Source: Chiloscyllium plagiosum (lineage: Eukaryota). From it: a stretch of 64,000 bases of DNA. The position numbers and the translations under genes are program-made. The stretch lies in NCBI RefSeq assembly GCF_004010195.1, contig NC_057718.1:51592373-51656372 (forward strand), in the 5' to 3' direction. How positions within the stretch are numbered: the stretch's first letter is position 1; each line of letters opens with the position of its first letter. The notes below the pieces were generated by a model that was not told the DNA's origin, made no database searches, and worked only from the letters and a program-made list of their open reading frames with translations. Positions 2,781 to 54,429 of the stretch are shown here, piece by piece.

Positions 2781-3527
2781 TAATAATAGGTATATTTTGT
2801 AGTTCTATTCTCCATAGAGATGGCTACTCAGATTCCATCAAAGTACTCTCAACCTGTCTAATACTTTGATTGTTTGAGGAAATACCGAACCTCAATCTGT
2901 GAAGTTGATGAAATTTTGAAATACAATCTGGCAATGCAGCTGAGTAGTGAGGTGAAGCCTGAACACACAGTGCAATGTGAATCTCACCTCTGCAGCATTT
3001 TGTGGAGGACAAATATCTTCTCATGGAAACAAAACATATATAAGAGATAGCTATCATTAAATACTCTGTATGCTTTTAAGTAATTCAGGAACATAGGTTC
3101 ATGTTCCACTTGCTCTAGAGTTGTGTCATAACATTTCCAAACAGATTGATTAGAAAATACCATTCAGTGAAAAACTTACAGGCAGAGTCTAATAGCAAGT
3201 AATACATCTGCATTCTTGGTGCACAAGTGAAGAGAAAATCAGTAGAAAGATTAGAGAAAATATAACTGAATAATATAACTATATAATTTCAGACTTCTGA
3301 TTTTGTGTAACCTCAATGGGTGGCTTCACGTTTTAAAAATCCGCAGCCAAATCTGTCTCTATTAAATCACTCTGCAAGTTGGGGGAAAGGCCAAAGTCAG
3401 GTAAACTTTGCTAAGTATTTGACACTAGGATTTTCCTGACAGAACAATCTCAATTTTAATTTTAGCAAATGACATGTACAGTGGGAGGAAAATTCACAGA
3501 GAATCCTCAACATAATGTCCACCTTAC

Positions 3528-3631
3528 TTATATTAGTACACATATAATATATATATAGTGTTTGTATATACAGGTATATGTACAGTATATATGTTTTTTA
3601 TATATATATAATATATAAAATATATCCATAT
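3528..3631. repeat. Degenerate (TA)n microsatellite
   Basis: Interrupted TATATA runs. Confidence 0.7.
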
Positions 3632-4507
3632 AGCAGGTGGTGTGATTATTGTTCATGTAAAGTGGGAATGGAAGGCTAGCTTGGACATTGCTGAAAAGCT
3701 TGAATCTGAAGGTGATAAGTGTTTCAATAAGACATTCAGCAATTTGGGAAGAAGTCAAACACAGGTAATATTTTATGAATACCTAGGTATTATGGTAGAC
3801 AACACATGGGGCCTGAAGTTCAGCTCAAGTTCAAGCAGGACTTTGAAGCATAAAGAGCATTGGATTTGGAGTTAAAAGGGAAGCCAATGAGATAAAATAG
3901 GATACAATTAGCTGAGATATAGAAGCTGTGTGAGTGCTTCTGGATCATATCACTGACAGACGGAATACAAATGAACAAACAAGGGTCAACATTAAAGCTT
4001 GAGGTGCATGAGTGGTACTTTGCATGCGAGCAAAGATAAATCAATGCAGAAGATGTGGACAGTTCTGCCTAAGCAAACAAACAAAAAAAATCATTTAGTT
4101 CTTACAATCTGTGGAAAATCTTCATTGAAGTTGGACCATCAAACATTGAGTATCTATCACCTTAGATCACTTTTATTTCTAGCTATGTAAATAAATTTGT
4201 ATTCAAATACAATAGTGAAAGGTAATTATTTTTCCCTTAAATATTTCTGTTTCTGATCATGAAATATGACAGCAGCACTGGCATTTTCAAAGATCTTAAA
4301 GATGAAGAGGATGCTATAAATTTAGTTATCCATGGAAATTTAGCTATCTATTGAAAGTTCAATAGTCAGTTGTTAAAGCAAGATTTAAAAAAAAAAATTC
4401 AATTTCCAATTTTAATTCAAAAAGCACACTGTATCCCAACCTTCACCATGTGCAGGGCAAGCCTAGCTCAAATGGTGTTTGGATACTGTGCTCTTGCACT
4501 GGCTATC

Positions 4508-4737
4508 CAGTAAAATGAGGAGAAAGTGAGGTCTGCAGATGCTGGAGATCAGAGCTGAAAATGTGTTGCTGGAAAAGCGCAGCAGGTCAGGCAGCATCCA
4601 GGGAACAGGAGAATCAACGTTTCGGGCATAAGCCTGAAGAAGGGCTTATGCCCGAAACGTCGATTCTCCTGTTCCCTGGATGTTGCCTGACCTGCTGCGC
4701 TTTTCCAGCAACACATTTTCAGATTCAGTAAAATGAG
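4508..4737. mobile_element. Fold-back Penelope-derived insertion with hammerhead core and 12-bp TSD
   Basis: Arms 4555-4634 and 4643-4722 are near-perfect reverse complements; TSD CAGTAAAATGAG at 4508-4519 and 4726-4737; core CTGAAGA-A-GGGC-TTAT-GCCC-GAAAC-GTC at 4634-4661 (+). Confidence 0.9.
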
Positions 4738-7184
4738 CCAACTATGCTCCCCAGGAGTCCATGTTTCTGAGACAGCACACACTTTTGTAAAGGTTTTATT
4801 ATTCTGGAACTTTGGATAGTCTTGTTAGGAGCACAATGTTTTCTATCACGTGGCTAACCAGAAATCTTTCCTATTCTTCCTACCTGCCATTGCAGTTTGT
4901 TGGAAGAACTTACAAGTTGATACCCAAACCTTTTGGTTATGGTACAAATGTACCTTCCTAAACAAGCAAGTCTGTGAATGGACGTTGAAACTGGAGACTC
5001 TTGAGGAATCCCCACAACTACTGTGAAACAAAATCTCCCTACCTGAAGATTTAAGAGCTTATACGACAAAATAAAACTGCTGCATGTCCAGAAAGTATAT
5101 GGAATAAGCCATAGTTGATTTTCTGCTAAATATGATGACCAAACATCTAGAACAAAGTTGTAGAGTACAGGTATTGTTGTTTTACTGAATTATAAAGATT
5201 GGTTTTAAAGGATTTTTCTTAGTTCTATGAGGTAGCGGGAAGGGGAGTCAGAACTGGAGCAGCTGTGATTGCTGTGGGACTGCCTATTGATAGTACTTGC
5301 ATAACTAAGTTTATGCTTACTTTATGCTACTTTATATTTAGTTGAAGCCTGCATGTTAGATTCTTTGAAGTTACTATATTTGCACTGTTTACCCCATTGT
5401 AGGGCATCTCCACAAAATTCAATATAAAAATAAGTTTAATGCATGCTCATCAGACAAAATGTATATATAAATGTTCCCGTATAATTAATTTGACACGTTT
5501 ACTTCATTACGAGCAACAGATATTACCTTCAATTAATCTACTAGATAATCAAGTAAAACTATTTCCAACAAACATCTCGTGAACAGATGAAGTGAGCTAA
5601 TTACTGCTCTGACTGTGGATCAGTACAATTCAGGGAACAAAAATCACTGATAAATCTCCATTTACTCTGGTGTAAGCCAAATGTGATTAGTTGCAGCTAT
5701 GACCTGTAAACATAGCATCACCAAGCAGACAACTGACAATGCTTTGGAATATGTTAAACAGAAATCATTAATGTATTATATATCTCATGGTTTGGCTGCA
5801 TGCTACAATTTTTTTGGCATTTCACTTTCATTTGGAAAGCCAATATTAATCATTGTCTTTGGGAAAACAGATGATATTCTTTTTATTTTGCAAATGTAGG
5901 TCTTGTCTTCAGCAAATTGATTTAAAATGCACCATATTTTGCATATGATTTAGCTTTTGGAATTATTTCCATCAGATTCTCTTCAATGTCCCATTGTCTG
6001 GATAAGAAATGCTTCATTGCCAGCATAATTGGAGGATTGATGAAATTGGTTGCACACACGACTTGCCTGTTCTCCAATGCAGCATTCCAGATTACTGACC
6101 CAGTGGAAAATGCATGTTTTTCTGAAGCAGCTTTTAAATGGCAAAACACTTCAGATGCTATAAATCTGAAATTTAAATAAAAACCTGAACATTTCTGATC
6201 CAATCAATCAGCAAATTTGGCATCCTGCTTTTGTGAGCGCTGTCCCTTAAGTATTCATTTGCTGAGAGCTCACTTTAGTTAGATTAGCAATTTAAACATC
6301 ATTAGACACATCATCTAGCTGCACATGCAGGTTGTACAGCAACTTTTAGTTAATGTCAGCTATGGGTTATTTTGCTTATAAACAAGAAATGGATATATGA
6401 AAATGGACACATGATGTGCCCTCCAACTTGTGTTTGAAACTGTCTTTGTCAACACTGATGGGTTCCAATGGAAGGCAATCCCAGTGCAAGAGTCAGATTA
6501 TGACTCAGATTTGCAGCTTCTTTATTTCTTTAAATGAAATTGCTTCCTCCTGTATTTTAACTAAGGTGTGAACCAATATATTTCATATAAGAATATTAAA
6601 TATGGATATAACATGAAATAAAAATCTTAAATGATCAAAGTGCAACCACATTTTGATAAAGCCTAAACTAATTTAATGCCAAATTCCACATACAGTAAAT
6701 TGAAATATTGCTCTGTGTTGTGTATACTGAACTAAGGATAAAATCTTAATTTAAATGGAAGTGTTCATCTGATGTTTCCATTGAATTACTGCTCTGTTCT
6801 GGTGAGAAAATGTAAACATAGAATCCAAATGATGTGCATTCAAACATTGACTCCATTCACTGGGCACCAGCACCCACTAGCTTATGGAGGAAGGGACAGA
6901 ATCTCTCTTTGCCACTTGCAGTGAAATCGTGCATTTTTTTTCTTTTTAAACATTATACACTACGACAAATAGTATATAGGCAAATGCAAGATAAGCCAAT
7001 TATGAATAGTTGCATTGTTTCCCAAACCTACACAGCACTTGAGACAGAGCAAGTCCTTCGCTTCATAGCAAAAATTGTTTCAACATTTTCCAGCAAATTT
7101 CGTATCAAATACCATCAGAGGGTTATGTTGTATACTTGTATTTAACATTTAACTCCAAATTATTTGTGAACCTGGTGAACATGT

Positions 7185-8401: not shown

Positions 8402-8601
8402 AATAGTACATGGCTAGAGACAAAAAAATCTGCAGCTGCTGAAATCTAAAATAGACAGTCAGGAGGCTGGAAGAACACAGCAAGCCAAACTGAGTCCTGA
8501 AGAAGGGTTACACCCAAAATGTTGACTTCTTCACTTCTTGATGCTGCCTGGCCTGCTGTGTTCTTCCAGCCTCCTGCCTGTTTATACAAAATAGTACATG
8601 G
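8402..8601. mobile_element. Fold-back Penelope-derived insertion (different subfamily) with decayed hammerhead and 12-bp TSD
   Basis: CAGGAGGCTGGAAGAACACAGCA / TGCTGTGTTCTTCCAGCCTCCTG inverted arms; TSD AATAGTACATGG at 8402-8413 and 8590-8601; CTGAAGA-A-GGGT-TAC-ACCC-AAAATGTT from 8497. Confidence 0.8.
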
Positions 8602-12380: not shown

Positions 12381-12850
12381 AGCAAGTCAGTATTTTTTAC
12401 TAGGCCCTACTTGACACATCAATCCTTCCTGTGCTAACTATGCTTCTTCCAATCACCACAGTCTCCCATTTAGCTAATCTTGCATTAAAATGTCACATAA
12501 ATATACAGTGAAACAACATCAAATCATGAAGGTACACTCAAACTCAGTGACCATTCAGAACCTTTAGAGAAATCTACTAGTCCATATATATTTTGCTTCT
12601 GGACAATTACACTCAGCAATATTTCTGCCAAGCACCATTCATAGCTTCACATGTAATGAAATTAGCAGCATGTTATATCTGTTTCAGCATTTCAGCTACA
12701 TTTCATAAACAACATCTTTATAAAATGATCTCACACTCGATGAGTTATTACACAAGCCCTTCGGCTTCATGCTGCATCATTACTTGTCATGTCAAAAGTC
12801 ATGCAATAATTTGGGAATCACAACGGTATGACACCTATTTGCGTACTTAC

Positions 12851-12970
12851 GGTCATTGCACAGGGTTCCTGTATAGGATGTCATACTACAGTCACAGCTG
12901 AAGCCATCCCACTGCTGGAGACAGACTCCTTGGTTTCCACAGGAATCCTCTTGGCAGGTTGTACTTGGTC
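12851..12970 (-). CDS. NRXN1: Alpha-neurexin exon E, 120 nt; third EGF-like domain
   Basis: [40 protein letters not shown] with six EGF cysteines; [16 protein letters not shown] is NRXN1-type. Acceptor TGTTCTAACTTAG|GA, donor GACC|GTAAGT; phase 1-1. Confidence 0.96.
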
Positions 12971-13919
12971 CTAAGTTAGAACAGACAAAAACTTGCATGT
13001 TGGCCTAGGTACATCATTGGTTGTACACTAATAAGTTTTGCATGCTTTCTGTCAACTGAAGACTGGACAAAGAAAAGAACATGGTTAGCTTGGATGTCAG
13101 AATGAAAACAAAATAACTTTACATTTCTAAAAAGGCTACTAAAGAAATCAGAATCCAAGGAAGAGTCTAAAACAAATGTGTTTAACATACTAAAATAACT
13201 GATATCGAAACATTCAAGACTGAAAGCCCGATGATAAGGCAAATCTTTCTTTCAAAATATTGATCTGATTCTGAAATTTGGATACAAATGCAATCGAGTT
13301 CCAAAGCAGATATATGCTGTTTGTATACATATTGCACAGACATGGATTTCAGTCTTGTTTTGTACAAACACACAGCTATCTACCTTGCAAGTCAGCTTTC
13401 ATCATTGCAACTTTGCCAGCAAAATAAAAGCAAAATATGTAAAAGGTTAGTAAGCAGTAGTGGCATGTTAGCAAACATCTGAAAAAATTTAGTGCAAACA
13501 TGCTGTTTAAAGGAGAGAAAGATGCAATACCAAACAAAAGATATGACAGCAGCCATTGATCATCTATAAGCAAGCCAGAAAGAATAGGTGGTTATATATA
13601 GCCATCAGAATGATATAGTCCACCATAATGCTGTTATAATTATAAACTATTCAAATAAAAACCAGCTAACTTGGTAAGGCAAGCTTGGCAAAGCTAAACA
13701 CAAGCAAGATTACTCACCTCTAGGTATAACATTTGAATATTTCTAAATTATGATTCACATAACATGGAAAATGTCTATTTAGTACCACATGGCATTCTCT
13801 TGCTGTGTCCTCTACAAAATGCTTCCCCGTGGTCATTTTTCTTTCATCAAAAGCTCAGTGATGACAATTATTGATTGATTAAGCTCTATTACTTATCAGG
13901 TTGGCAAAGTCAGTTGTCT

Positions 13920-19199: not shown

Positions 19200-19780
19200 C
19201 TACTCGCAGAGCACTTCAGAGAACATCTCCGGGATACTCACACCAATCAACCCCATTATCCCGTGGCTGAACACTTTAATTCCCCCTCCCACTCTGCCGA
19301 GGACATGCAGGTCCTGGGCCTCTTCCATCGCCACTCCCTTACCACCCAACACCTTAAGGAAGAATGCCTTATCTTCCACCTCAGGACCCTTCAATCCCAT
19401 GGCATCAATGTAGATTTCACCACTTTCCTCATTTCCCCTCCCCCAACCTTACCCCAGTTCCAACTTTCCAGCTCAGCACCGTCCGCATGACCCATTCCAT
19501 CTGTCCATCTTCCTTACCACCTATCCGTTCCACCTTCCCCTCCGACCTATCACCTTTAACCCCACCACCATTCACCTATTGCGCTCTCAACTACCTTTCC
19601 CCAGCTCCACCCCCTCCCATTTATCTCTCCACCCCTGAGGCTCCAAGCCTCATTCCCGATGAAGGATTTTGCCCGAAATGTCAATTTTTCTGCTCCTTGG
19701 ATGCTGCCTGACCTGCTGTGCTTTTCCAGCAACACACTCTTGACTCTAATCTCCAGCATCACAGTACTCACTTTCGCCTT
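19200..19780 (+). mobile_element. Penelope-like element 3' part: GIY-YIG endonuclease C-terminus, C-rich 3' UTR, decayed hammerhead
   Basis: EHFREHLRDT..PVAEHFNSPSHSAEDMQVLGL..KEECLIFHLRTLQSHGINVDF; CCGATGAAGGATTTTGCCCGAAATGTC at about 19656-19682. Confidence 0.88.
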
Positions 19781-20454
19781 TTGATTAATTATACCTGCTT
19801 AGGTGTCTCTTAAAAGGTACTTAATTGAGATCTTAAGAATTTCAAATCTTTCATACTGCCCCTGAAAGTAGGTATCCTTTTTCGGGATAAAGACAAAGAT
19901 ATAGGCTTATCCTCCAAACATTCGTCTGAAGTACTTATTCATACTTATTAAATCTTTAAATGTTTTTCTTTATTTGTGAATTTTCAGGTTAACTCGAAAT
20001 ATCATAATTTGTTCATCAATACTAATTGCTTTTGTAAAGGTAATGGTGAGCCACTCTTTCAAATCCATGCACAGTGAATGGTGGAGGCAGGGAGTTCTAA
20101 AATTTTGACAACTTCAGTGAAGGAGCAGGAATACAGATTTAGAATATACAATTCTGTTGTTTCTTTTTGCTGGCACTCATGCAATGTCATGTTGATGTGA
20201 AAAGAGATTGTAAATTGATCTTAAAATTATGTTTATTTGCTTCATTTTAAAATGGACTTCAGTGGATTAAAATGGCTGCTGTAGATCACATGATTCACAA
20301 GTTATCTACAGTTCCAGAATTTTCCTGTGGACCAAGTTAAAATTTCGCACCTATAAATGCATGAACACTGTAAGTGTCACAAAACAATGACGGCACAAAC
20401 TTTTTGTCTCCAAACTTGAATTGATAACAAAGGAGACATATCAAAAGTAATAAA

Positions 20455-21630
20455 ATAAACAAAAAAAGCTGCAAATGCTGGAAATTGACGAAACAAAATC
20501 GGAAATTTCTGGAAAAACTCAACAGGTCTTGCAGTAACTGTCGAGAGAAAGCAGAGTTAATATTTTGGCAAATAATCCTATGGCAGTGAATGTTGGTGGG
20601 ATGGTAGGTGAAGACCAGTGGGACTGCTGTGGGAGGGAAGAGAGAAGTTGAGTACTGAAGTGCAGGAGATGGGTCAGACACGGCTGAGGGCCCTGTCAAC
20701 AATGGTGCTGGGGAGTCCTCGGTTGAGGAAGAAGGTGGGCATTTCAAAGGCCCCTTTGTTGAAGTTGGCATCATCAGAACCCAATACAATGGAGACAGAG
20801 GAACGGAGAGTTTGGAACAGAGTCTTTACAGGAAGTAGAATATGAGGTAACTGTGGGAGTCGGCAAGCTTGTAATGAATATCAGTGGCCCCAGAAATGGA
20901 AATAGACATGTCGAAGAAGGGAAGGGAGGAGTTGGAGTTTGACCAGGGGAAGATGAGAGCAGAGTAGAAATTGAAAGCAAAATTGATAATTTTTTTCCCA
21001 ATTCTGGATGAGAGAGGGAAGCAGCACCAATAATGTCATCAATGTACCAGAGGAAGAGTTGTGGGTGGGGGCTGGAGTAGGATTGAAACAAGGAGTGTTC
21101 CACAAACAGACATGCGGATACCATGGCCACTTTGACCTGAAGAAAATGAGAGTCGTTAAAGGAGAAGTCATTCAAAGTGAGGACAAGCTCATCCTGGTAG
21201 AGAAGAGTTGGGAGATAATGTTTTGGGAGATAGTGAGCTTCCACTGCAGGAGTCGGTAGAGAAGGGTGATGCAGGATGGAGATGACTCAAGCCTTTCTTG
21301 CAGGAAGAAGCAGAATTCACAGAGATCCCAAAGGGTGAATGGACGTGTAAAGATTTTGCATGTCCATGGTGAGGAGGAGGCAGCTCGAGCCCATAAACTG
21401 GAAAATTTGAAAATGACATAAAGATTCAGAAGAATTTCAGATGTAAGTGGGAAGGAACTGGACAAGGAGAGAGAAAATCGAGTCAAGGTAGGAAGAAATA
21501 AGCTCTGTGGAACAGGCAGAAACAATGAGTCTGTCTTAGTAGGCTTGTTTGTGGATTCTGGGAAAGGAGTAGAAGCGGGTTCTGTGGGATTGGGGGACTA
21601 TGAGCTTGGAGGCTGTGTGGGGATCACCAG
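20455..21630 (-). mobile_element. Penelope-like element reverse transcriptase fragment plus 3'-end piece
   Basis: ORF ELVLTLNDFSFNDSHFLQVKVAM..SACLFVEHSLFQSYSSPHPQLFLWYIDDIIGAAS (YIDD); VPLVFTYHP; internal deletions and frameshifts; pLTR-type piece at 20455-20562. Confidence 0.85.
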
Positions 21631-23924: not shown

Positions 23925-24053
23925 ATAAAAACAAGGACTGCAATGCTGGAAACCAGAGTCTGGTTAGAGTGGTGCTGGAAAAGCACAGCAGGTCAGGCAG
24001 CATCCGAGGAGCAGGGAAATCGACGTTTCGGGCAAAAGCCTTTCATCAGGAAT
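23925..24053 (-). mobile_element. Penelope-like 3'-end (pLTR) fragment starting at a hammerhead motif
   Basis: Minus strand ATTC-CTGATGA-A-AGGC-TTTT-GCCC-GAAAC-GTC-GATT (core 24049-24022), then the pLTR body. Confidence 0.8.
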
Positions 24054-28404: not shown

Positions 28405-31328
28405 GAAGGTGGAAGTCAGAAACAGGAAAGGAGCAGTCACTTTATTCAACAGACCCCCAGTAGCAACAGAGACACAGAGGAGCAGATTGGGAGGCAGCTT
28501 TCGGAAAGGTGCAGAAGTAACAGGGTTGTTGTCATGGGTGACTTCAACTTCCCTACTATTTATTGGAATCTCCTTAGTTCAAATAGTTTGGATGAAGCAT
28601 ATTTTGTCAGGTGTGTGTCCAGGAAGGATTCCTGCCTCAATATGTAGAAAGGCTGACTAGATGGGAGGCCATATTGGATCTGGTGGTTGGCAACCAACCA
28701 GATCAGGTGTCAGATCTCTCAGTGGGAGAGCATTTCAGTGATAGTGATCACAACTCCCTGACTTTTACTATAGTCATGGAGAGGGATAGGAGCAGATTTT
28801 TTTGAATTAGATTTTTAGATTATTTACTGTGTGAAAACAGGCCCTTCGGCCCAACAAGTCCACACCGACCCGCCGAAGCGCAACCCACCCATACCCCTAC
28901 ATTTACTCCTTACCTAACACTACGGGCAATTTAGCAAGGCCAATTCACCTGACCTGCATAGCTTTGGACTGTGGGAGGAAACCGGAGCACCCGGAGGAAA
29001 CCCACGCAGACACGGGGAGAACGTGCAAACTCCACACAGTCAGTCGCCTGAGGCGGGAAATGAACCCGGGTCTCTGGCGCTGTGAGGCAGCAGTGCTAAC
29101 TACTGTGCCACCGTGCCGCCCAGATGGTGTAGGAAATTGTGAGATGGGCAATTACAATGCTATTAGGCAAAAACTGTGGAACAAATTGGGAACAGACATT
29201 CTCATGGAAATCCAAAACAGAAATGTGGAGGTTGTTCCGGGAATGCATACTGTGTGCTGGATAGGTTTGTCCCACTGAGGCAAGGAAGGGATGGTAGGGT
29301 GAAGGAACCTTGGATGACAAGAGATGCCTAACATCTAGTCAAGAGAAAGAAGGAAGCTTACTTAAGATTGAGGAAGTAATGATCAGACAGGGCTCTACAG
29401 GGTTACAAGATAGCCAGGAAGGAACTGAAGAATGGACTTGGAAGAGCTAGAAAGGGGCATTAAAATGCCTTTGTGGAGAGGATTAAGGAAAAGAAAACCT
29501 AAAGCATTCTGCACTTACATGAGGAACAAGAGGATGGCCAGAGTGAGGGTAGGGCTGATCATGGATAGTGAAGAGAACTCGTGCCTGGGAGGAAGAGATA
29601 GGGGAGGTCCCTAATAAATACTTTGCTTCAGTATTCACCAGTGAGACGGACCTTGTCATTTGGGAGGACAGTGTTAAACAGGCTGACACGCTTGAACAAG
29701 TTGATGTTAAGAAGGAGGATGTGGTGGAAAGTTTGAAAACATGAGGATAGATAAGCCCCGTAGCCCAGACAGGATATACGCAATGTTACTACGGAAGGCG
29801 AGGGAAGAGATTGCTGTGCCTTTGGCAATGATCTTTGCATCCTCACTATCCATTGGAGTAGTACCAGATGAGTGGAGGGTGGCAAAAGTTATTCCCTTGT
29901 TAAAGAAAGGATATAGAGATAATCCTGGGAATTACACAACAATCAGTCTTACTTTGGTGGTGGGCAAATTATTGGAAGGGCTTTTGAAAGACAGGATTTA
30001 TGATTATTTGGAACAGTGTAGCTTGATTAGAGATAGTCAACATGGCTCTATGAGGGACAAATCATGTCCATAAGCCTTATTGAAATCTTTGAGGATGTGA
30101 CAAAACACATTGATGAAGGTCGAGCAGTAGATGTGGTGTATATGGATTTTAGCAAGGTGTTTGATAAGGTTCACCATGGTAGGCTTATTCAGAAAGTAAG
30201 GAGGCATGGGGTAGAGGGAATTTTGGCTGTTAGGATACAGAATTGGCTGGCCTATAGAAGACAGAGAGTGGTAGCAGATGGAAAGTATTTAGCCTGGAGC
30301 TCGGTGATTAGTGGTGTTCTGCAGGGATCTGTTCTGAGGCCTCTGTTCTTTGTGATTTTTAAAAATGTCTTGTTTGAGGAAGTGGAAGGGTGGGTTAGTA
30401 AGATTATCAATGACATGAAGGTTGGCGGAGTTGTGGATAGGGTGGAGGGCTGTTGTAGGTTGCATCGGGACATTGACAAGATGCAGAGCTGGGCTAAGAA
30501 GTGGCAGATGGAGTTCAATCTGGAAAGGTGTAAAGTGATTCATTTTGGAAGTTCAAATTTGAATGCAGATTTTTGCAGGATTAAAGTCAGTGCAGAGGAA
30601 CAGAGGGATTTTCGGGCCCACATCCATAGATCCCACAAAGCTGCCACGCAAGTTGATAAGGTTGTTAAGGAGGAGTATGGTGTGTTGGCGGTCATCAGCA
30701 GGGGAATGAGTTTAAGAGCCACAAGGTTTTGCTGCAGCTTTATAAAGCCTTCGTTATACTTCACATGGAATGTTATATTCAGTTCTGGTCACCTCATTAT
30801 AGCAAAGATATAGAATCTTCAGAGAGTGTGCAGATGGGATTTACCAGGATGCTGCCTGGACTGGAGGGCAGGTCTTGTAAAGAATGATTGAGGGAGCTAT
30901 GGCTTTTCTCATTGGACCAAAGAAGGATGAGAGGTGACTTGATAGAGGTGTACAAGATGATGAGAGGCACAGACAGAGTGGATAACCAGAGACTTTTTCC
31001 CAGGGCAGAAATGGCTATCATGAGGGGGCATACTTTTAAGATGTTTGGAGGAAGGTTTAGGGGAGGTAGGTTCTTTCTACAGAGAATGGTGGGCGCATGG
31101 AATGGACTGCCAGCAGTGTTAGTAGAGTCAGAGATATTAGTGACATTTAAGCGACTCTTGGATAGGCACATGGATGATAGGAAAATAAAGGATATGTAGG
31201 TTAGTTTGATCTTAGAGTAGGATAAAAAGTCAGTACAACATCAAGGGTCAAAGGGCTTGTACTGTGCTGTACTGTTCTACATTCTATGTTCTATGTTCTG
31301 CATTCTGTGTTCTATGACCTATGTTCTG
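28405..31328 (+). mobile_element. Long 5'-truncated CR1 LINE (APE C-terminus, RT, 3' UTR), inactivated and interrupted by a SINE
   Basis: GDFNFP, ILDLVVGN..SDHNSL, VVPDEWRVAKVIPLLKKG, VDVVYMDFSKVFDKVHH, GVLQGSVLRP; catalytic FADD reads IIND; several frameshifts; (TTCTATG)n tail 31274-31328. Confidence 0.95.
28798..29120 (-). mobile_element. Young full-length HE1-type V-SINE inserted into CR1
   Basis: GGCGGCACGGTGGCACAGTAGTTAGCACTGCTGCCTCACAGCGCC head, CpG-rich V-domain, AATCT-type tail; CAGAT on both flanks (28793-28797, 29121-29125). Confidence 0.93.
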
Positions 31329-34268: not shown

Positions 34269-34934
34269 AGGGGTGACAGGGTAAGTGTCTTCAAGATTAT
34301 GAATGGATTTGATTGATTAAATGTAAAGATTATATATCCATTTGTGGGTGATGCCAGAACTAAGGGGCAAACATAAACATAAGACAGTCACTAATGAATC
34401 CATTAATGATTTGGAGGAATGTTCCTTACCCAGAAAGAGGTTAGAAGGACTGCCGTGTCAGAAGGGGTCGTTGAGGCAAATGGCATTGACCCATTCAAGG
34501 GGAGGCGAAGAGGGAAAAGGACCAGAAGGATGTTCTGAAAGGTTGAGATGAAAAAGCAAAGGGAGGAGACAAATGTGCAGAACAAGAACATTTGTGTGGC
34601 CCTTCTGGGCCAAATAGCCTATTTTTAGGTTGCAAGTACAAATCTTGGAATATCTATCTTTGTTTCTAACGGGGCGAGAAGGGCTTGAAGCCTAAGCATG
34701 CTATGAAATAGAATGTAGGAAGTGTAATTATCCTTCAATCCTTCATAAAGCAGGAATAGAGTTCCCCCATGTGCTATCAGAAGTGTGATAACACACCCAT
34801 TTATAACTGAATAGAGCACCAAGGAAACCTTCCTCAACAGTGCACGAACTAATTTGTCAAGTATACAGAGCTGCAGCTACAGGGCTCCTGACTATCATAA
34901 AAAACAGTGAAAGGTACCCACATAAACCTCATGG

Positions 34935-35335
34935 AGAAAATGTGGACTGCAGATGCTGGACATCAGAGTTGAAAAGTGTGGTGCTGGCAAAGCATAGCAG
35001 GTCAGGTAACATCCAGGGAGCAGAAGAGTTGATGTTTCAGGCATAAGGCCTTCATCAGGAATGTGTGTGGTTTGGTTGGGGGGGGGGTTGTTAATGGGAA
35101 AGGGGCTGAGAGATAATTAGGAGGGGATGGGGCTGGGAGGAAGGTAGCTTGGAAGGCGAAAGGTAGATGCAGGTGGAGGATGATGAGATAGGTCAGAGAG
35201 GAGGGTGGAGTGGATAGGTGGGAAGGAAAATGGACAAGTGGAACAGTTCAAGAGGGCAGTACCAAGTTGAATAGTTGGATCTGGGATGAGATGGAGGGGA
35301 GGGGAGATGAGGAAACTGGTGAAATTGCCTTTGAT
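34935..35335 (-). mobile_element. Penelope-like element 3' part with hammerhead motif
   Basis: Reverse complement of the 19410-19780 region; minus-strand CTGATGA-AGGC-CTTAT-GCCT-GAAAC-ATC at 35058-35031. Confidence 0.85.
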
Positions 35336-38300: not shown

Positions 38301-38599
38301 AGGCAGTGAAAATGCCAAGGAGAACAAAATAAAATCAAACCCTGTCTACAAAACCGATCCATTATTTTCTGTCACCTAATGTTTAAATAGTTTCAGTGAC
38401 TTGATTTTAGCTGAAAAGTATTCAGTGAGCCGAGGCATTCCTGTGGGAAAATATCAGCACTCTCAAGATTAAACGTAACAGGATAATATGGAAAAATAAA
38501 ACAACGTTGCAAAAGATATTGAAATAATAAGAAATATGCTGGATTCTTTATAGAATGATGGTGATTGATTTTGCTCTCGAGGGAGAGAATGAGGGATAC

Positions 38600-38773
38600 C
38601 TTCACAGTCCCGCTCAATCTGGCCATTGCAGTACAAAGCATCAGAAATTAGGTCTGGTAGTCTTCCATTCAGGTCCACTGAAGCCAAACAGCCTTGAAAT
38701 CCCTCCCTCGACGCCACCAGCTTCGGTAAGGTTTTGTACATGTCTTTGGCAATTCCTCCAATATACAAGTCTC
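38600..38773 (-). CDS. NRXN1: Alpha-neurexin exon D, 174 nt; end of LNS5
   Basis: [65 protein letters not shown](F/Y)CNGQIER is NRXN1-type. Acceptor TTTTTTCTAATCCATAG|GA, donor GAAG|GTATCC; phase 1-1. Confidence 0.96.
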
Positions 38774-39659
38774 CTATGGATTAGAAAAAATATAAACTGA
38801 ATTAACACAGTCTTAAAACTTATTGATTTAATGTGTTCACCACACTCTGGAAATGAGAAAAGAATCTACATAGAGTAAAAGGAAGCTTTGATTTTGTGAT
38901 TACACAAAATAAATTTTAATGAAAACTTGAAGCATTCTGATCAATGCAATTTCAAGCATAGTTTGGTCACAATTTTCTGATTGCATCCAAAAATGAAAAA
39001 TCTACCCATAAAAAAAATCAGGCTTAATATAACTTTGACTGTTATTCTAGAATCTCCCATTTCACACAGATTTCACAATGTTTTCAACACTTTTAGTTTT
39101 TAATTGTACTATAAACAATGTTATCTACTTTCATTTTGCTTTCAGTCATTGTACTATACTTTCATAATTAATGTTATAAAGGAGGTTAAGGCAAGAGCAA
39201 GAATTCATTCACTTTATAAGGACTACTTCCCACAATGGAAATCCTTTGTGGTTTACACACTGAGTGACATTTAATGAACATGATAAAACAGTACTTTCCA
39301 GTCACTCAACAGCAGTCACTTCAAACTTCAGCATGTTACTTGCTTGTGATTATTATATGACTCATTGTACTTCAATAATCCAGAATGACACTACACTTCC
39401 ACATTGTCTTATTCAATTGTTGTCTAGTTCCAGCAATCTACACAAATGTTCTTGCCAAATGTTCATCACTTTTGACATTAAGTACTTCCAGCACTTGACT
39501 TCGTCAAGCTGCTTATTTAAAACAATGACAATAATAGTAAACTCTGAATTAATTAGTGGAGTCTGGTATGAGCAATGCACAGGGACAATCCTGTTATCTC
39601 AACTTTCCACAGATTTTTAATAAGATGCTAATATTTACAGCAGATAGTGAGAGGTGAGC

Positions 39660-40589: not shown

Positions 40590-40819
40590 CCTTATAAAAT
40601 TTGAGCTGAAAATGTGCTGCTGGAAAAGCGCAGCAGGTCAGGCAGCATCCAAGGAGCAGGAGAATCGAGGTTTCGGGCATGAGCCCTTCTTCAGGATTCC
40701 GAAACATCGATTCTCCTGCTCCTTGGATGCTGCCTGACCTGCTGCGCTTTTCCAGCAACACATTTTCAGCTCTGATCTCCAGCATCTGCAGTCCTCACTT
40801 TCTCCTTATAAAATTTGAG
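40590..40819. mobile_element. Fold-back Penelope-derived insertion with minus-strand hammerhead and 16-bp TSD
   Basis: TSD CCTTATAAAATTTGAG at 40590-40605 and 40804-40819; arms about 40603-40675 and 40699-40772 are reverse complements; minus strand GAATC-CTGAAGA-A-GGGC-TCAT-GCCC-GAAAC-CTC-GATTC (40699-40662). Confidence 0.9.
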
Positions 40820-43310: not shown

Positions 43311-43614
43311 CATAGCTCAATTGTCATCCTCATGGGCAAAGCAAGAACACCCATCAGTCAAATCTAGCCTATGATATAAAACACCAGTGCAGGTTAAAAT
43401 AATTTTTTGGACATTCTACCTGAATTTGAAAACACAAAATAGCCAGAGCAAATCCTGTGAGGCAGTGATTGGTCTGAAGAGATCTGATAAGTCCAAGACT
43501 CAGTACAGGGTAAGAATATTAGAAGATAATTCTTAAGGAGTACCCCATCATTCTGTTTGTTTTGAAAAGATGCAGAAATTCTGCTGTATTGGAGAATAGG
43601 TCACAGTCCCTTAC

Positions 43615-43805
43615 CTTTCAGATCGAGATTTCTGGCTCCGACTGTGTTTTGCGTGATGAGTTTGGAGTTAATCTTCACAGTGTGCAAGTTGTTCATGTCC
43701 CGCGAAATCAGCACATTGTGCCATTTATTGTCATTCAGTGGTTTGTCAGAGTTCCCTTTAATGAGGGAAGGGCCAGTACCTAAATCGAATACATAGTGTA
43801 AGTAC
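43615..43805 (-). CDS. NRXN1: Alpha-neurexin exon C, 191 nt; LNS5
   Basis: [74 protein letters not shown] and GARNLDLK are NRXN1-type. Acceptor TTCTTCCCTCCACAG|G, donor AAAG|GTAAGG; phase 2-1. Confidence 0.96.
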
Positions 43806-44360
43806 CTGTGGAGGGAAGAAATAAGGAAGTCAGTTATTATCAAAGATGCTGGGGTAGAATCATGTTGGTTTACTTTACAATAAAAATCTCCAAAAGAAGT
43901 TTGGTTTGTTGGGGGTTTTGGGTGGGGGGGGGGAAAAGAGGGCAGAACAGGAAAGTTTTTAATCAGACAGGAGAGCAGTGGACGAAGGTATTGCCAGCTT
44001 CTCATCTCCACCCTGATTAATTCTGGAGAAGAGAGGCTCTTGGGTGACCTTCCATCCCCACTGTCAAATAAGGCCCTGAAGTAGGTAATTATTACCCACT
44101 TAAAGGCCTCATATACCCTTACTGCTGATATTCACCAGCAGCAGATGGAGTATTTGCCATGTGGGAAACCTTAAAACCTTAAAACTTCCAGTGTGCCCAC
44201 TTACTCAAAGGTGCTATGTTCCTAACCTAGCAATGGAAAGGAAGTGTCTGCTAAGAGGCAGCTCCTCCCCTTCTGGTCGACCCAAGTCCCTTGCAAACTC
44301 CACCCCAACATTATTTACGTGTTCCCTGGATCCTTCAAGGATTCTAAGCCTCAGGTGGAC

Positions 44361-44586
44361 ACACTGCTAGTAGCAGGAGAAAGTGAGGACGCAGATGCTG
44401 GAGATCATAGTCGAAAAGTGTGGTGCTGGAAAAACACAGCCGGTCAGGCAGAATCCGAGGAGCAGGAGAGTCGACGTTTTGAGCATAACCTCTTCATTAG
44501 GTTATGCTCGACTCTCCTGCTCCTCAGATGCTGCCTGGCCGGCTGTGCCTTTCCAGCACCACGTTTTTCGACACTGCTAGTAGCAG
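44361..44586. mobile_element. Fold-back Penelope-derived insertion with decayed hammerhead and 16-bp TSD
   Basis: TSD ACACTGCTAGTAGCAG at 44361-44376 and 44571-44586; inverted arms; minus strand CTAATGA-A-GAGG-TTAT-GCTC-AAAAC-GTC. Confidence 0.88.
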
Positions 44587-45087
44587 TCACCTGTCTTGCT
44601 GGCACTGTTGGCCTCTGATTGTTTGCCAGCTCTCAGGAGTTAGGATCTCCATCTGCTGGATCTCAGGGGAGGACTGCAGCTTCCCAGAGAAATGCCAAGT
44701 TGGACATTAACTCAGTGGGCTTGTCAACAGGGAGATGCAGAGTTCTTCCTGGCTCTTCATCCAGTGGGAGATACCTTCGTCAATCCAATTAAATACCACT
44801 CATTCTGTCCTCCAGTTCATGCATCTTAAATGCAAAATGATTCGTACCACAGTGTAATTCTCAGCTACCTAATTATGCAAGAATCTATACATAGGTCAGT
44901 TGTTTTCCTACACACTTCCAGCAGATAAAGTTCTGGATATAGATGCAAATTTTGCTAAATATTAGTATTGGGAAACATAATTATGATGAAAACTATATTG
45001 ACAATAATGTATGCAAACATAACTCCCAAACGTAATTTCAGATTTTGCACATATGCTGTACTTGAAATGTAATCAGTCCAACCATAC

Positions 45088-45469
45088 CCTTTAACAAGTT
45101 CAATCACAATGAAATCATTGCCATCTCCACTGTTGAACAGTATCAGTCCATCAGCTGATGTTGTCTTGAATTGGAAGAACAGATGCATGGAGGTGTAGGC
45201 TTGCAATGTGGACAGTGCTACATAGCTGGATTTTGTCTTGAAGGTCACAGGATCAGCAATAATATTTTTTAAACCAAATCTAGCATTGAGCTCACAGTAG
45301 TCAATATCACCATTTTTGCACAAGTCAATGTAAGGCATGCCATTGAACATAAGACTCTGTAAATGGCCAATGAAATTTGAAGGGATGTTTGACATGTATC
45401 GTCTCTCCGTCACTATGCCTGTTTCAATGTTGTGGAATTCTAGACGAGTATGATCTCCTGTCATTTGAT
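45088..45469 (-). CDS. NRXN1: Alpha-neurexin exon B, 382 nt; end of LNS4 and start of LNS5
   Basis: [24 protein letters not shown]...[18 protein letters not shown]...[15 protein letters not shown]...[15 protein letters not shown]. Acceptor TTTCCTGTTTCAG|AT, donor AAAGG|GTATGG; phase 1-2, in frame with neighbouring exons. Confidence 0.97.
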
Positions 45470-46909
45470 CTGAAACAGGAAAGAAACAATAGGATATATA
45501 AAAACCACTTCATATTCAAAAGTACACAGGAACAAATGCAATACATGTTCATGAAGAAGCTTACCACTATTTATTGTCTAAATTCCATTTAACTCACCTC
45601 ATTCTAAATACCTGCACCCATTAATTATAAAACAATTTGTTTTAAGTTACATTGGACAATGTTCAATAATTTTCCCAAAAGGACTCCAGTCCTTTACTAG
45701 ATTTAACAATGATAATACAAGATTTTTTCCATAACATGCACTTATTAATTATTTGTTGCTGCAAATTGTTATGCTATCCAGCAGATGGCGGCATTTACAC
45801 ACTAATGATTTTGACCAAATGAACAAACCCTTTCTATCATCAGACAGAAGAAGAAAACAATTTATAATCTATCATAATGAAATACATAGGCACAAGCATT
45901 CACCAGCACCTAATGTTTACAAAAACGTTACTATCAGCAGAGAGGAATAACAAAATATCTCACTGTTACTGCATTTTGCTTATTACTTATATCTTGCAGT
46001 ATTTTTTTTGTAAAACCTCTATTTCATTCCATCAAAGTGATAAATATTTTCAATAAATGAAAAGTAAACTAAGTACATATTTTCATTCATCAGCAATCAT
46101 TCTATTAGGAATAAAGAAAATACATTGGTTAAAGGAATTAACTTTTTTACAGGAACATGATAACAAACTGAAGGTGGTTCAAACATTATCTTTAAAAAGT
46201 GCATAAATCAGATGTCACAATCATAAAATATATCTTCGCACAGGCTAGAATCTTGAAATGTCTTTTTTTGTAATGCATGTCTCAGTTTCATATTGACAAA
46301 TACTGAGATTGCTTTAATGAAATGTATTTTGAGAACTAAGTATTTAAATTGTGCTAAATTGCACTCCAATACTTCAGAGAGTGGCAGAGGTACTGCAATG
46401 TCAATCGAGATCAAAATTATAAGGTTAGTGCTTGAGAACACACTAACTGTGGGGCTAATTGATCTCACAACTGTCAAAATGTGTTACAGCAGAAGTGAGA
46501 AAGACAGGGCGATATCAGTCCCTGGATTCTGGGTAAATGCTGACACTTTAGTGAGCAATAAAAATCAATTTAACCTTGTGGTACCTTCTGGAGCTTTTGT
46601 AATTGAGCAGTGACTGTAAGTATTTTCACTCAGACTTCTTCTATCCTTGAATAGTAACTCAAAACCATGAATATATCCATGACAGGTACTAATGTTTCTT
46701 TAACTAAATTCATCCTGAGTGTGAGGCTTGTTTATTTTTGAGTAATAATTTTATATCTCTGGGGCTCAGTTAGCTCAGTTGGCTGAGGGACTAGACTGTT
46801 GTGCAGAATAAAGTTATGTATGGGCTATGGTAGTTGATAGAGGTCTGCTCTCACTGCTCGCCCCACACTTGTGGAATAGATCCCCTCAAGTTATATATAT
46901 CATGAAATG

Positions 46910-47181: not shown

Positions 47182-49029
47182 TTCACCTCTGGTCCTTTAT
47201 TGATGCTGGTTCCTTACAAACTTACATTTTTGCCTCTGTTAAACAGTGAAGGATGCCACTTTTGACCTCAGAATGAGGATTAAGCATAACCAAAAGATTC
47301 TCATTTCCCATCTCATGTTGTTGCTTTAATTACAATGTCAGTGAATCACCCTGTGCTGTATTCCACCAGTTGCCCTTTGCCTTGACATTGACTGCCCAAC
47401 ATAAATGCAGCTCTTGGAGTATGGTGGGGGCAGGATGAGTGGGGTATATTTTAAACTCTGGTTGGCAGTATTATAAATCTGTCATATGACATGCAGTTAG
47501 TGGCCTGGCCCAAAGCTGCAAAGTTACAGCTGGGTCTGCCTCTGGTGATCCAGCAGCTGTGGTTATACTTTACGTGACTCGGGCAATTAGTGACCTGAAG
47601 ATGTGGTTCTGCCCCTCTGAGGCGGGGGCTGGCAACTGCAAGCTGTATTAGTGGACGAGACGGTGAGATGGAAGAGAGTGAACTCCATCCCAGAACACCC
47701 TTCCCGGCCAATCCAGCTGTTGAATAAGGTGAAATTTGTGCCCTCTATGTGGGTTCCCAACCCACATCTATGTGAAAGAGTTGGTTACTTGACCAATAGC
47801 TTTGCAATCGAGGCATAGAGCAGGAGGGCAATGTCGCACAAGTAGCCAGTGTCTGTGATATTAAAGGGGCAGCTGGTAACATCCTGCATGCATTGGTCAA
47901 CATCATACATTTGACAAGGAGAAAAAGAGGACTATGTATCGTGGAGGGAAGCTGTGTATCTCACTGGAGGAGAGTCCTAAATATATTTTTCCACCTGAAG
48001 AGAGTAACTAGCAAGGTTTCTTATCAAAGGTAAAGGGATTATTCAGCAAGGAAGGTATCACGTTATCAGGCCAAACTAACTCATGACAGGACAAGGAGGC
48101 CCACATGCAACTCATGGCCGAGGAGAGCTCATGTTGGTGAGGGCACTGCCCACTCGCCCATGCAGCTGCCAGAGACAAAGAAATGGAGTTGGCATCTGGG
48201 ATGGCAGTTAAAGGATTGAAGGTCTAGATGCTGAATCCCAGTGGGTATGATGAGTCCCTGGAGTATCTATAAGGACAAATATCCAGCAGGACCTGCTTGG
48301 AGATGTGGCTGGGTTATGAGAGGATTTGTGTGCAATGGCAAGGATTTCAGAAGTGACCATCTGGAATATTGCATTGATCCAGTCGTCAGAGTGCTCTGTC
48401 TCTGCTGTGGTGAGGCTGGTGACTGTCTTGGAGAGCCAGATCCAACTGATTATAGGAGCACTGAGGGGTGCCATGACCTGTAGCCCATCACCCTGGCTGG
48501 ATTCTCAGGAGGTGGAACCAGGGCCACAGGGGCACTAGGATTCTGGACACATGACTTTGTCTCTCTCAGGTACCATGGAGGTACCATCAGCAGGTGGTGC
48601 CACCTGGAGGTTCCTCTCAAGGTGCTTCAGATGAAGTCATATTTCCCTGCATTAATCTGCAATTGACCCAATCACAGTTTGTTTCTGCAGAGGCAGGAGA
48701 TATCTGAGCTTGAGCAGTATCCAAGGCTGGTCCTTCATGGTCAAAGCAGATTAGAGAACAGCATGCAAATCTATCCAGCACAGGACATGAAAGCAAATCT
48801 AAACAGCACCATCAATAATCACAAGTTGGTGTTTTGTTGTTCTTCAATCGTCCCAAACTGTGAGGGGAGTTCTGTCCGGGAAATGTTTGTTTTATTCACA
48901 TCAGATGTATATTCATAGCTTTATTAATGCTTGAAGATGGAGAATAAATATGAAATTATTAGTAGCAGATAATTCAAGATGTTAAAATGGATGTTGGATG
49001 AATTTGGGTAAAGTGTGGCTATTGTGAAT

Positions 49030-49520
49030 TATAATGTGAATATTCTTTCTTTAGAAGGTGACGTGGTGACAGTGCAGTTAGACTGCAGGCTGTCCAGATC
49101 GGTACAATGTGTCTTCTCCTGAAACATTTGCACTACTAATACATCATGTGTCTCACGGCTATCAAGGTCCTTGCAGGGCCCTTCATCTCTCCTGTGGTGG
49201 TCTGTCAATGCCCTTGGGGAGTTAATCAGAGGATTCAATGTCATTTTGTGGTTTCTCTTCCTCCATGGTATCCCCTCTGTGCAAGGCACAGATGTATCCC
49301 TATCCCTCAGCAGCTCAATTTCCAAAGCATCGTGCCCATTGATCCAGCCTAGCACCTCATGGTTCTTCAACATCCATGGGTCATGACAGCAGCCTGAATA
49401 CCTGGCACATACTTGCAGCATTTGGAATTGATGGTCACACACTAATTGGACATTCACAGAATGAAAAGCTTTCCTGTTGGTGAATGCTCAGGGCTAGCCT
49501 GCTGCTGGTTTCTTTGATTA
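49030..49520 (-). mobile_element. PIF/Harbinger transposase (HARBI1-type DDE) relic
   Basis: Minus-strand translation AFTNRKAFHSVNVQLVCDHQFQMLQVCARYSGCCHDPWML matches Harbinger NRKGFHSxNVQxVCD..ARxPGSxHD. Flanking GC-richer 47800-51250 may belong to the same element. Confidence 0.8.
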
Positions 49521-54239: not shown

Positions 54240-54322
54240 CAGAATCGAGTGTGGTGCTGGAAAAGCACAGCAGATCAGGCAGCATCCAAGGAGCAGGAGA
54301 ATCGACATTTTGGGCAAAAGCC
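54240..54322 (-). mobile_element. Penelope-like 3'-end fragment truncated within hammerhead helix II
   Basis: Minus strand GGCTTTTGCCCAAAATGTCGATTCTCCTGCTCCTTGGATGCTGCC. Confidence 0.75.
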
Positions 54323-54429
54323 TACAACAACATCCACAGCAAACAAACTGTTGCTTGGCATCATGGGGATCGCAACACTTGAATATCGGCCGATTTCTCA
54401 AGATCCAGGAGCTCACCACTAATTAAATA

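Follow-up and report, generated by a model that had tools for sequence, protein, structure and literature searches.

A fold-back insertion in the shark Chiloscyllium plagiosum as a probable record of Penelope-like element insertion

The fold-back at positions 4508-4737 of the window (the whole stretch analysed, 64,000 nt of Chiloscyllium plagiosum contig NC_057718.1) is almost certainly an insertion product of a Penelope-like element (PLE). A stereotyped Penelope insertion product was one of two options in an earlier sequence-only reading, and it is borne out by the layout, the target-site duplication (TSD), a one-sided tail and a parent that encodes a reverse transcriptase (RT) and a GIY-YIG endonuclease. 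The insertion would have been made in one event by the element's protein, priming from both strands of a staggered cut. The hairpin itself is probably neither a new mobile element nor an RNA switch, but an ordinary retrotransposon stub that has been inert since it inserted; the population of such stubs is likely to be a record of how PLEs insert.

The insertion and its parent element

Self-comparison of the window places the two arms at 4555-4634 and 4643-4722, each 80 nt long and 98% complementary to the other, in keeping with the near-perfect inverted repeat of about 80 bp that had been noticed from the sequence. The RNA fold of 4508-4737 has a predicted energy of -175.4 kcal/mol (z = -25), and 0 of 200 shuffled sequences was equally stable. 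The 12-bp TSD of the earlier reading is exact (4508-4519 and 4726-4737), and is more likely a 15-bp TSD with one substitution (4505-4519 and 4723-4737), which agrees with the median of 15 bp in the family. Between the target ends lies a 206-bp insertion that consists of two head-to-head end pieces without coding sequence. The 38 nt at 4517-4554, which the sequence-only reading had not described, are part of it; they are unmatched on the right side and form a one-sided tail, the end of which shares its final three bases with the left target end. A search for the empty site in the contigs of four runs found no piece that crosses the insertion.

Positions within the element are given on a ruler in which +1 is the A three bases before window position 4633 in the parent, hammerhead cleavage falls after +32 and the tail runs from +94 to +131. 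The left arm (4555-4634, minus strand) is an inverted, 5'-truncated copy of the pseudo-LTR (pLTR) that covers +14 to +93, lacks the CUGAAGA core and carries a private CpG-type change at 4616; the tail (4517-4554, minus strand) belongs to this arm only, and the distal RT start site probably lies at its outer end. The right arm (4633-4722, plus strand) is a direct, tail-less pLTR copy that covers +4 to +93, starts 3 nt after the putative RNA 5' end and has a private change at 4683. The arms meet at a 2-nt microhomology common to both (4633-4634), which is the commonest junction class, and a minimal type I hammerhead core of the PLE type lies across the loop and right arm (4634-4661, plus strand), with cleavage predicted after 4661 and a helix I of 1 bp.

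Genome-wide, a search with two 14-mers no more than 60 nt apart found at least 11,382 fold-backs in the 3.56-Gb genome; a 33-mer from the arm had 76,312 exact matches and a 50-mer over the ribozyme 8,074, with 0 matches for the reversed-pattern controls. Longer copies extend upstream through ~230 non-coding bases into a GIY-YIG frame, which in locus L045 matches PF01541 (E 6.5e-5) and is colinear with the arm, and other copies continue downstream from the tail into the N-terminus of an ORF, whose first in-frame ATG lies near +167 in most. The arm thus follows the GIY-YIG frame and also precedes the start of the ORF, which identifies it as the pLTR. One copy (L263) encodes an RT (PF00078, E 4e-9), a Cys-rich linker and GIY-YIG in that order, and a C-x-x-x-C-x-x-C stretch precedes GIY-YIG in L259, L260 and L263. 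In the available text of PMC8557442, a Cys-rich, zinc-finger-like linker between RT and endonuclease marks Neptune or Nematis; judged by its sequence, the parent is a PLE with a Neptune-type linker, a trait it has in common with Nematis. As regards the insertion bias of Neptune for microsatellites, the fold-back TSDs, judged by eye only, are mostly complex sequence. The 12 long copies that were fetched are all broken by assembly gaps and include no unbroken full ORF; four of the long insertions (L254, L256, L259 and L262) have the same ends, one tailed and one tail-less, flanking coding sequence and a gap. Short upstream reading frames in L271 and L287 start at +19 and +51, ahead of the main frame near +167, and the +19 start lies inside hammerhead loop II, where it is kept in all three common loop variants.

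An EN+ PLE insertion unit, as described in the parts of PMC8557442 and PMC3846280 that were available, consists of a pLTR, an adjoining inverted 5'-truncated copy, a tail of 30-40 bp at one end and a TSD. The present family has an RT with a C-terminal GIY-YIG domain, a hammerhead-bearing pLTR at both ends of the ORF, an inverted 5'-truncated copy, a tail of that size at one end and a TSD. The likeness to published units thus extends from the head-to-head inverted copy, the 38-nt one-sided tail and the TSD round the whole unit to the parent and to long copies of similar build. Unlike them, the present units (at least 11,382) comprise two end pieces only and no coding sequence, and the clustering of inner ends at one point with an extra G, described below, is not reported in the available text of either paper.

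Arm ends, junctions and the base before +1

All samples were drawn from the first 3-32 Mb of one contig. Arm ends were scored at 100 listed places of the arm 33-mer, together with two partner arms, in the first 3 Mb of contig C1. The outer ends are bimodal, with 58 of 102 at +89 to +101 and 44 at +124 to +130. Inner ends were counted in 96 arms, six that abut assembly gaps having been left out: 31 lie at 0 to +2 and 38 at -2 to +4, compared with 34 at +5 to +56 and 24 upstream of -2, which gives a density of 5.4 per nt at -2 to +4 versus 0.65 downstream and 0.17 upstream. A few long arms scored short through indels or nearby gaps, which leaves the peak unaffected. The inner end falls at the cleavage site (+33) in 1 of the 96 arms. 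Inner ends that lie before the ribozyme and rarely at its cleavage site indicate that the RNA template was mostly uncleaved, as is reported in vitro in the accessible part of PMC11167929.

Complete fold-backs were taken from all 50 listed places in the first 13 Mb of C1, picked by inner sequence only. Exactly one tail is present in 49 of the 50 (p 5e-14 versus independent choice); 48 pair one tailed with one tail-less arm and none lacks a tail. The exceptions are L165, with one tail and an internal duplication, and L071, with tails on both arms. The TSD measures 11-19 bp in 45 of 48 fold-backs (median 15), and two copies that run into the ORF start (L271 and L287) likewise start from +1 and have an inverted junction of the same type. 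In L088, L118, L121, L130 and L314 the inverted arm is little more than the tail, and these copies link single-arm copies to full fold-backs.

Junctions among 48 fold-backs fall into 29 classes, of which the commonest (6/48) is that of the copy studied here; 30 of the junctions have 1-3 nt of microhomology, 16 have fillers and 2 are blunt. In 42 of 48 fold-backs one arm or both extend to +4 or beyond, and the further-reaching arm is the tailed one in 21 and the tail-less one in 26. In 22 of 48, this copy's class included, the inner sequence of the tail-less arm is missing from the tailed arm. Each arm can have sequence that the other lacks, which indicates that neither is a snap-back copy of the other. 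The microhomologies correspond to self-complementary sequence within the first 15 nt of the RNA. Genome-wide, the junction of this copy was counted 1,001 times in its own polarity, in which the shorter arm has the tail, and 189 times in the reverse one, with a few copies tailed on both arms. It is found on two haplotypes in the sample, on visibly more in the genome-wide listing, and on several subfamily backgrounds whose variants are mirrored in both arms. Such a variety of classes, subfamilies and polarities argues for recurrent joining at the self-complementary first 15 nt and against a single propagating hairpin. The 5:1 polarity bias of this junction, where other junctions are about even, leaves room for a mechanistic asymmetry or for some re-propagation. 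The sequence-only reading had proposed to decide between a self-propagating element and independent inversions by whether junctions are shared or unique; the junctions give an answer that neither alternative foresaw, in that the same ones recur across several subfamilies, in both polarities, at hot spots of microhomology. Many fillers consist of additional short stretches copied from the first 5-20 bases of the RNA, in one orientation or the other (L079, L082, L128, L146, L154, L159, L170 and L306), which suggests repeated template jumps before joining.

The two arms of a pair are nearly identical, with 62 differences in 2,816 positions, and subfamily variants are common to both in 46 of the 59 cases that are informative (by permutation, a mean of 0.13 and a maximum of 0.33), which indicates that both arms usually come from the same source; shared variants would also be expected if one arm had been copied from the other or if gene conversion had followed. 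At two non-CpG diagnostic sites the arms are discordant in 9 of 96 comparisons versus about 1.4 expected, which suggests two templates at least sometimes. A C-to-T change shared by the right arms of the best DNA hits was considered as inheritance from a master hairpin and proved to reflect query selection, 1 of 47 informative unselected copies carrying the change.

Genome-wide, the base before +1 is G in 4,403 copies versus A plus T in 2,884, a G share of 60% against the 22-29% (about 25%) expected at 36-45% GC. The parent has C at this position, in a context around +1 that we take to fit the initiator consensus. Among 8,756 matches that diverge from the parent sequence upstream, a hand count of the first 100 gave C 41, G 37, A 11 and T 11, including two rows that look duplicated and were kept. 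In that count 41 of 100 arms that reach +1 have the parent's own C before it, and 21 of these also have the next parent base; together with the 24 of 96 arms that extend beyond -2, this indicates that the RNA end is not a single one. One base later, the same kind of hand count (first 100 of 4,069) gave G 18, C 24 and T 58 (Fisher p 2e-8). A preference of the target end as the source of the extra G is not supported, given that there is no G excess one base later.

Among 40 of 100 listed G loci, classed by script with the labels checked by eye, a lone G stands between the TSD end and +1 in 4 (L293, L294, L298 and L317); at the others it is the last base of a filler (14), is common to the other arm (15) or to the target site (4), or is unclassified (2). 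A G-bearing subfamily was rejected as its source, the parent-type variant being found at 1 of 40 loci only (L302). The G can be read as part of the other arm or the target site at 19 of 40 loci; such sharing would be expected of an extra base that aids annealing, but is alone no proof. In addition, G plus +1 to +4 equals the first five bases of the hammerhead 3' cleavage product (+33 to +37), and a switch onto cleaved RNA could be an alternative source of the extra base. An untemplated 5' G in L1 insertions has been read as reverse transcription of the cap (PMC9341517, in the part available). From the comparable G here we infer that +1 is a capped transcription start, as far as genomic copies can tell. 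Single-cell poly(A) reads of one sample cover both strands and run into unrelated flanks with no start pile, the read type being unable to show a start site; a second run gave no matching reads.

Insertion mechanism and rival explanations

In L1 twin priming, a second nick primes a second cDNA and the two cDNAs join by microhomology, and in retroviruses the minus-strand strong-stop DNA runs off the capped 5' end of its template after a short distance. For the present family we propose a mechanism with elements of both, which we consider probable. Transcription from the pLTR promoter would begin at +1 and give a capped RNA headed by the hammerhead, and the endonuclease would nick both strands about 15 bp apart. 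Priming at +131 from one 3'-OH would be coupled to priming at +93 from the other, probably through an asymmetric dimer. These sites also lie near the RNA 5' end, and the cDNAs would run off after only 93-131 nt, as strong-stop DNA does, copying the cap as an extra base. Annealing of the two cDNA ends by microhomology, followed by fill-in, would give the fold-back with its one-sided tail and TSD. The same steps, primed at the 3' pLTR of a read-through RNA, would give the long copies with inverted ends. The proposal differs from L1 twin priming in that both cDNAs copy the same stretch from two fixed internal starts, whereas those of L1 copy different parts of the RNA.

This mechanism joins the counts of tails, inner ends and G to in vitro results for PAc, the Poseidon element of the green anole. 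According to the available part of PMC11167929, the PAc protein cuts and extends both strands, two RT start sites bound the tail, uncleaved RNA is the template and a dimer is predicted. The present family likewise has two apparent RT start sites bounding the tail and a hammerhead shortly upstream. It differs in its Neptune-type linker and in the strict pairing of tailed and tail-less arms in genomic copies, which the PAc assay, in the same text, does not address; that assay saw no difference in start site between the two strands, which by itself leaves one tail per insertion unexplained.

A different origin of the arms has been published for head-to-head palindromes in rotifer Penelopes (PMC3846280, in the part available), namely self-priming, and would here mean that the inverted arm of the stub arose by snap-back on an antisense RNA or a first cDNA, the endonuclease setting the outer ends later. 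The near identity of the arms (62/2,816), the variants they share in 46 of 59 cases and the self-complementarity of the junction microhomologies within the first 15 nt of the RNA would suit it, but we consider it unlikely: snap-back of one cDNA cannot yield the 22 of 48 cases with sequence private to each arm, an antisense template offers no reason for an extra G at +1, and the excess of discordant diagnostic sites (9/96 versus about 1.4) points to two templates at times. Somewhat less likely again is twin priming with a +1 that marks RNA processing or an RT stop, in which case the G would be added by terminal-transferase activity or picked up when the RT jumps onto cleaved RNA. The five-base identity of G and +1 to +4 with +33 to +37 and the spread of ends from -3 to +4 are compatible with such an uncapped end, whereas the lack of a G excess one base later, the initiator-like parent sequence around +1, the start of full-length copies at the same base and the rarity of arms ending at the cleavage site (1/96) argue for a capped one.

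The other option of the sequence-only reading, a self-propagating, non-autonomous retrozyme-like hairpin that is transcribed whole and re-inserted, with the antisense arm gating the ribozyme, is very improbable and, as the main source of the copies, largely refuted. About 1,000 copies with this exact junction in this polarity speak for it; against it stand the 29 junction classes in 48 copies, the recurrence of the same junction on several subfamily backgrounds and 189 times in the opposite polarity, arm ends that lie off the cleavage site, the lack of tandem head-to-tail units, a helix I 5' strand that is full in only 10 of 48 fold-backs and a host-gene strand without the core. Editing scars (A-to-G or T-to-C), taken as a mark of re-inserted hairpin RNA, were found in 0 of 463 distinct arm alignments. 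Non-LTR retrozymes, in the available text of bioRxiv 10.64898/2026.07.22.740005, are head-to-tail tandem units that each contain a hammerhead; like them, the fold-back is short, non-coding, PLE-derived and hammerhead-bearing, but it is head-to-head and single, has one complete core and does not end at cleavage sites. A DNA transposon of the MITE type, with terminal inverted repeats, would also be short, non-coding, palindromic, TSD-flanked and very abundant, but its probability is close to nil, as the inverted repeat is not terminal (a 38-nt one-sided tail lies outside it), the TSDs are long and of variable length, the centre is not constant, and an RT-encoding element has this very sequence as its pLTR.

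Whether twin priming from a capped start reaches beyond this family is evenly balanced in our view; the stubs would then be a genomic record of PLE insertion by an asymmetric dimer, with a 15-bp staggered cut, two start sites, an uncleaved capped RNA and head-to-head joining. If so, inverted pLTRs, one-sided tails and TSDs would have one and the same origin throughout the PLEs, antisense self-priming would be superseded, and the hammerhead would stand at the very start of the transcript, where its cleavage would uncap the RNA. The origin of the tandem and inverted ends of PLEs is called unresolved in the available part of PMC8557442, and the young stubs, which number in the tens of thousands, make the question testable by counts. 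The inverted truncated copy, the one-sided tail and the TSD were already known; what the stubs add is the one-tail pairing, the pile-up of inner ends and the extra G, which lead to specific predictions for the in vitro system and for 5'-end sequencing. In the open literature, our searches on PLEs and on shark PLEs returned no description of one-tail coupling, twin priming, strong-stop cDNA or a cap-derived or non-templated base; subscription papers, repeat databases (Repbase, Dfam) and supplements may contain such descriptions. For annotation, the stubs are of concern in that they mimic MITEs and miRNA hairpins, with about 76,000 exact arm copies in the genome.

Ribozyme, host gene and other copies in the window

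The core nucleotides of the hammerhead are as the sequence-only reading described them, namely CUGAAGA (4634-4640), an extra A (4641), stem II (4642-4653; 4 bp with a tetraloop), GAAAC (4654-4658) and GUC (4659-4661). The word intact, however, does not extend to the helices: the 5' strand of helix I has been cut away in this copy, leaving one possible pair compared with 3 of 4 at the parent 5' end, and helix III has no loop, which implies that a dimer is needed. Only one arm of the fold-back holds the full core. Across the loci examined, all of which have the core by virtue of the search pattern, variation is found in loop II and at position 7, and stem II is mostly paired; the full 5' strand of helix I is kept in only 10 of 48 fold-backs. 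Minimal PLE hammerheads have an unpaired base between positions 9 and 10.1, a G10.1-C11.1 pair and a palindromic, loop-less helix III, and pairs of them on opposite strands, 100-700 bp apart, had already been noted (PMC4209133, in the part available). The present motif shares the core, the unpaired base before stem II, the G10.1-C11.1 pair and the loop-less helix III with these metazoan hammerheads and differs in a helix I truncated to 1 bp and in a full core on one arm only. The extra A, which had been likened to that of the CChMVd viroid, is conserved in PLE minimal hammerheads according to the same text, making the viroid comparison needless. The proposed Infernal check, with the Rfam hammerhead models, gave no match in 3500-6000 at E <= 10, a search that is uninformative for so minimal a motif; what it did return below threshold were weak matches to miRNA hairpins only. 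Loci L014, L069 and L133 belong to another family of minimal hammerheads, in which the unpaired base is U and stem II is longer.

Folding of the full hairpin predicts a pair probability of 0 for stem II and a cost of 26.6 kcal/mol to free it. In the construct 4625-4722, stem II is still masked by antisense bases (10.9 kcal/mol), and it forms in 4633-4722 and in the parent 5' end. The masking that had been suggested as a built-in off switch is therefore predicted, but any head-to-head arrangement would produce it; there is no sign that a switch has been selected for, and such a function of the hairpin is, on these folding models, unsupported.

The frame at 44955-45509 (minus strand) matches structures of neurexin-1-alpha (E 3e-87). 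Three further minus-strand frames, at 43601-44131, 38472-38780 and 12795-13004, are presumably exons of neurexin-alpha as well, and the hairpin, which follows the located exons, would lie in an intron of this gene. No CUGANGA core was found on the minus strand of the hairpin; the host pre-mRNA would therefore carry a long hairpin without a ribozyme.

Two further fold-backs of the same family lie in the window at 40603-40809 and 44375-44567, with long TSDs and different junctions, the second being older. Single-arm stubs of older related subfamilies occur at 14-129, 8496-8570, 19655-19779, 23934-24050, 34933-35059 and 54250-54323, and in most of these, too, the start lies immediately ahead of the hammerhead. 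At 20337-21286 (minus strand) are decayed coding remnants, assigned to a PLE-like RT and linker by their likeness to L263. The window also contains what we take to be a LINE-like RT fragment at 30037-30813 (plus strand) and a Harbinger-like transposase fragment at 49029-49487 (minus strand).
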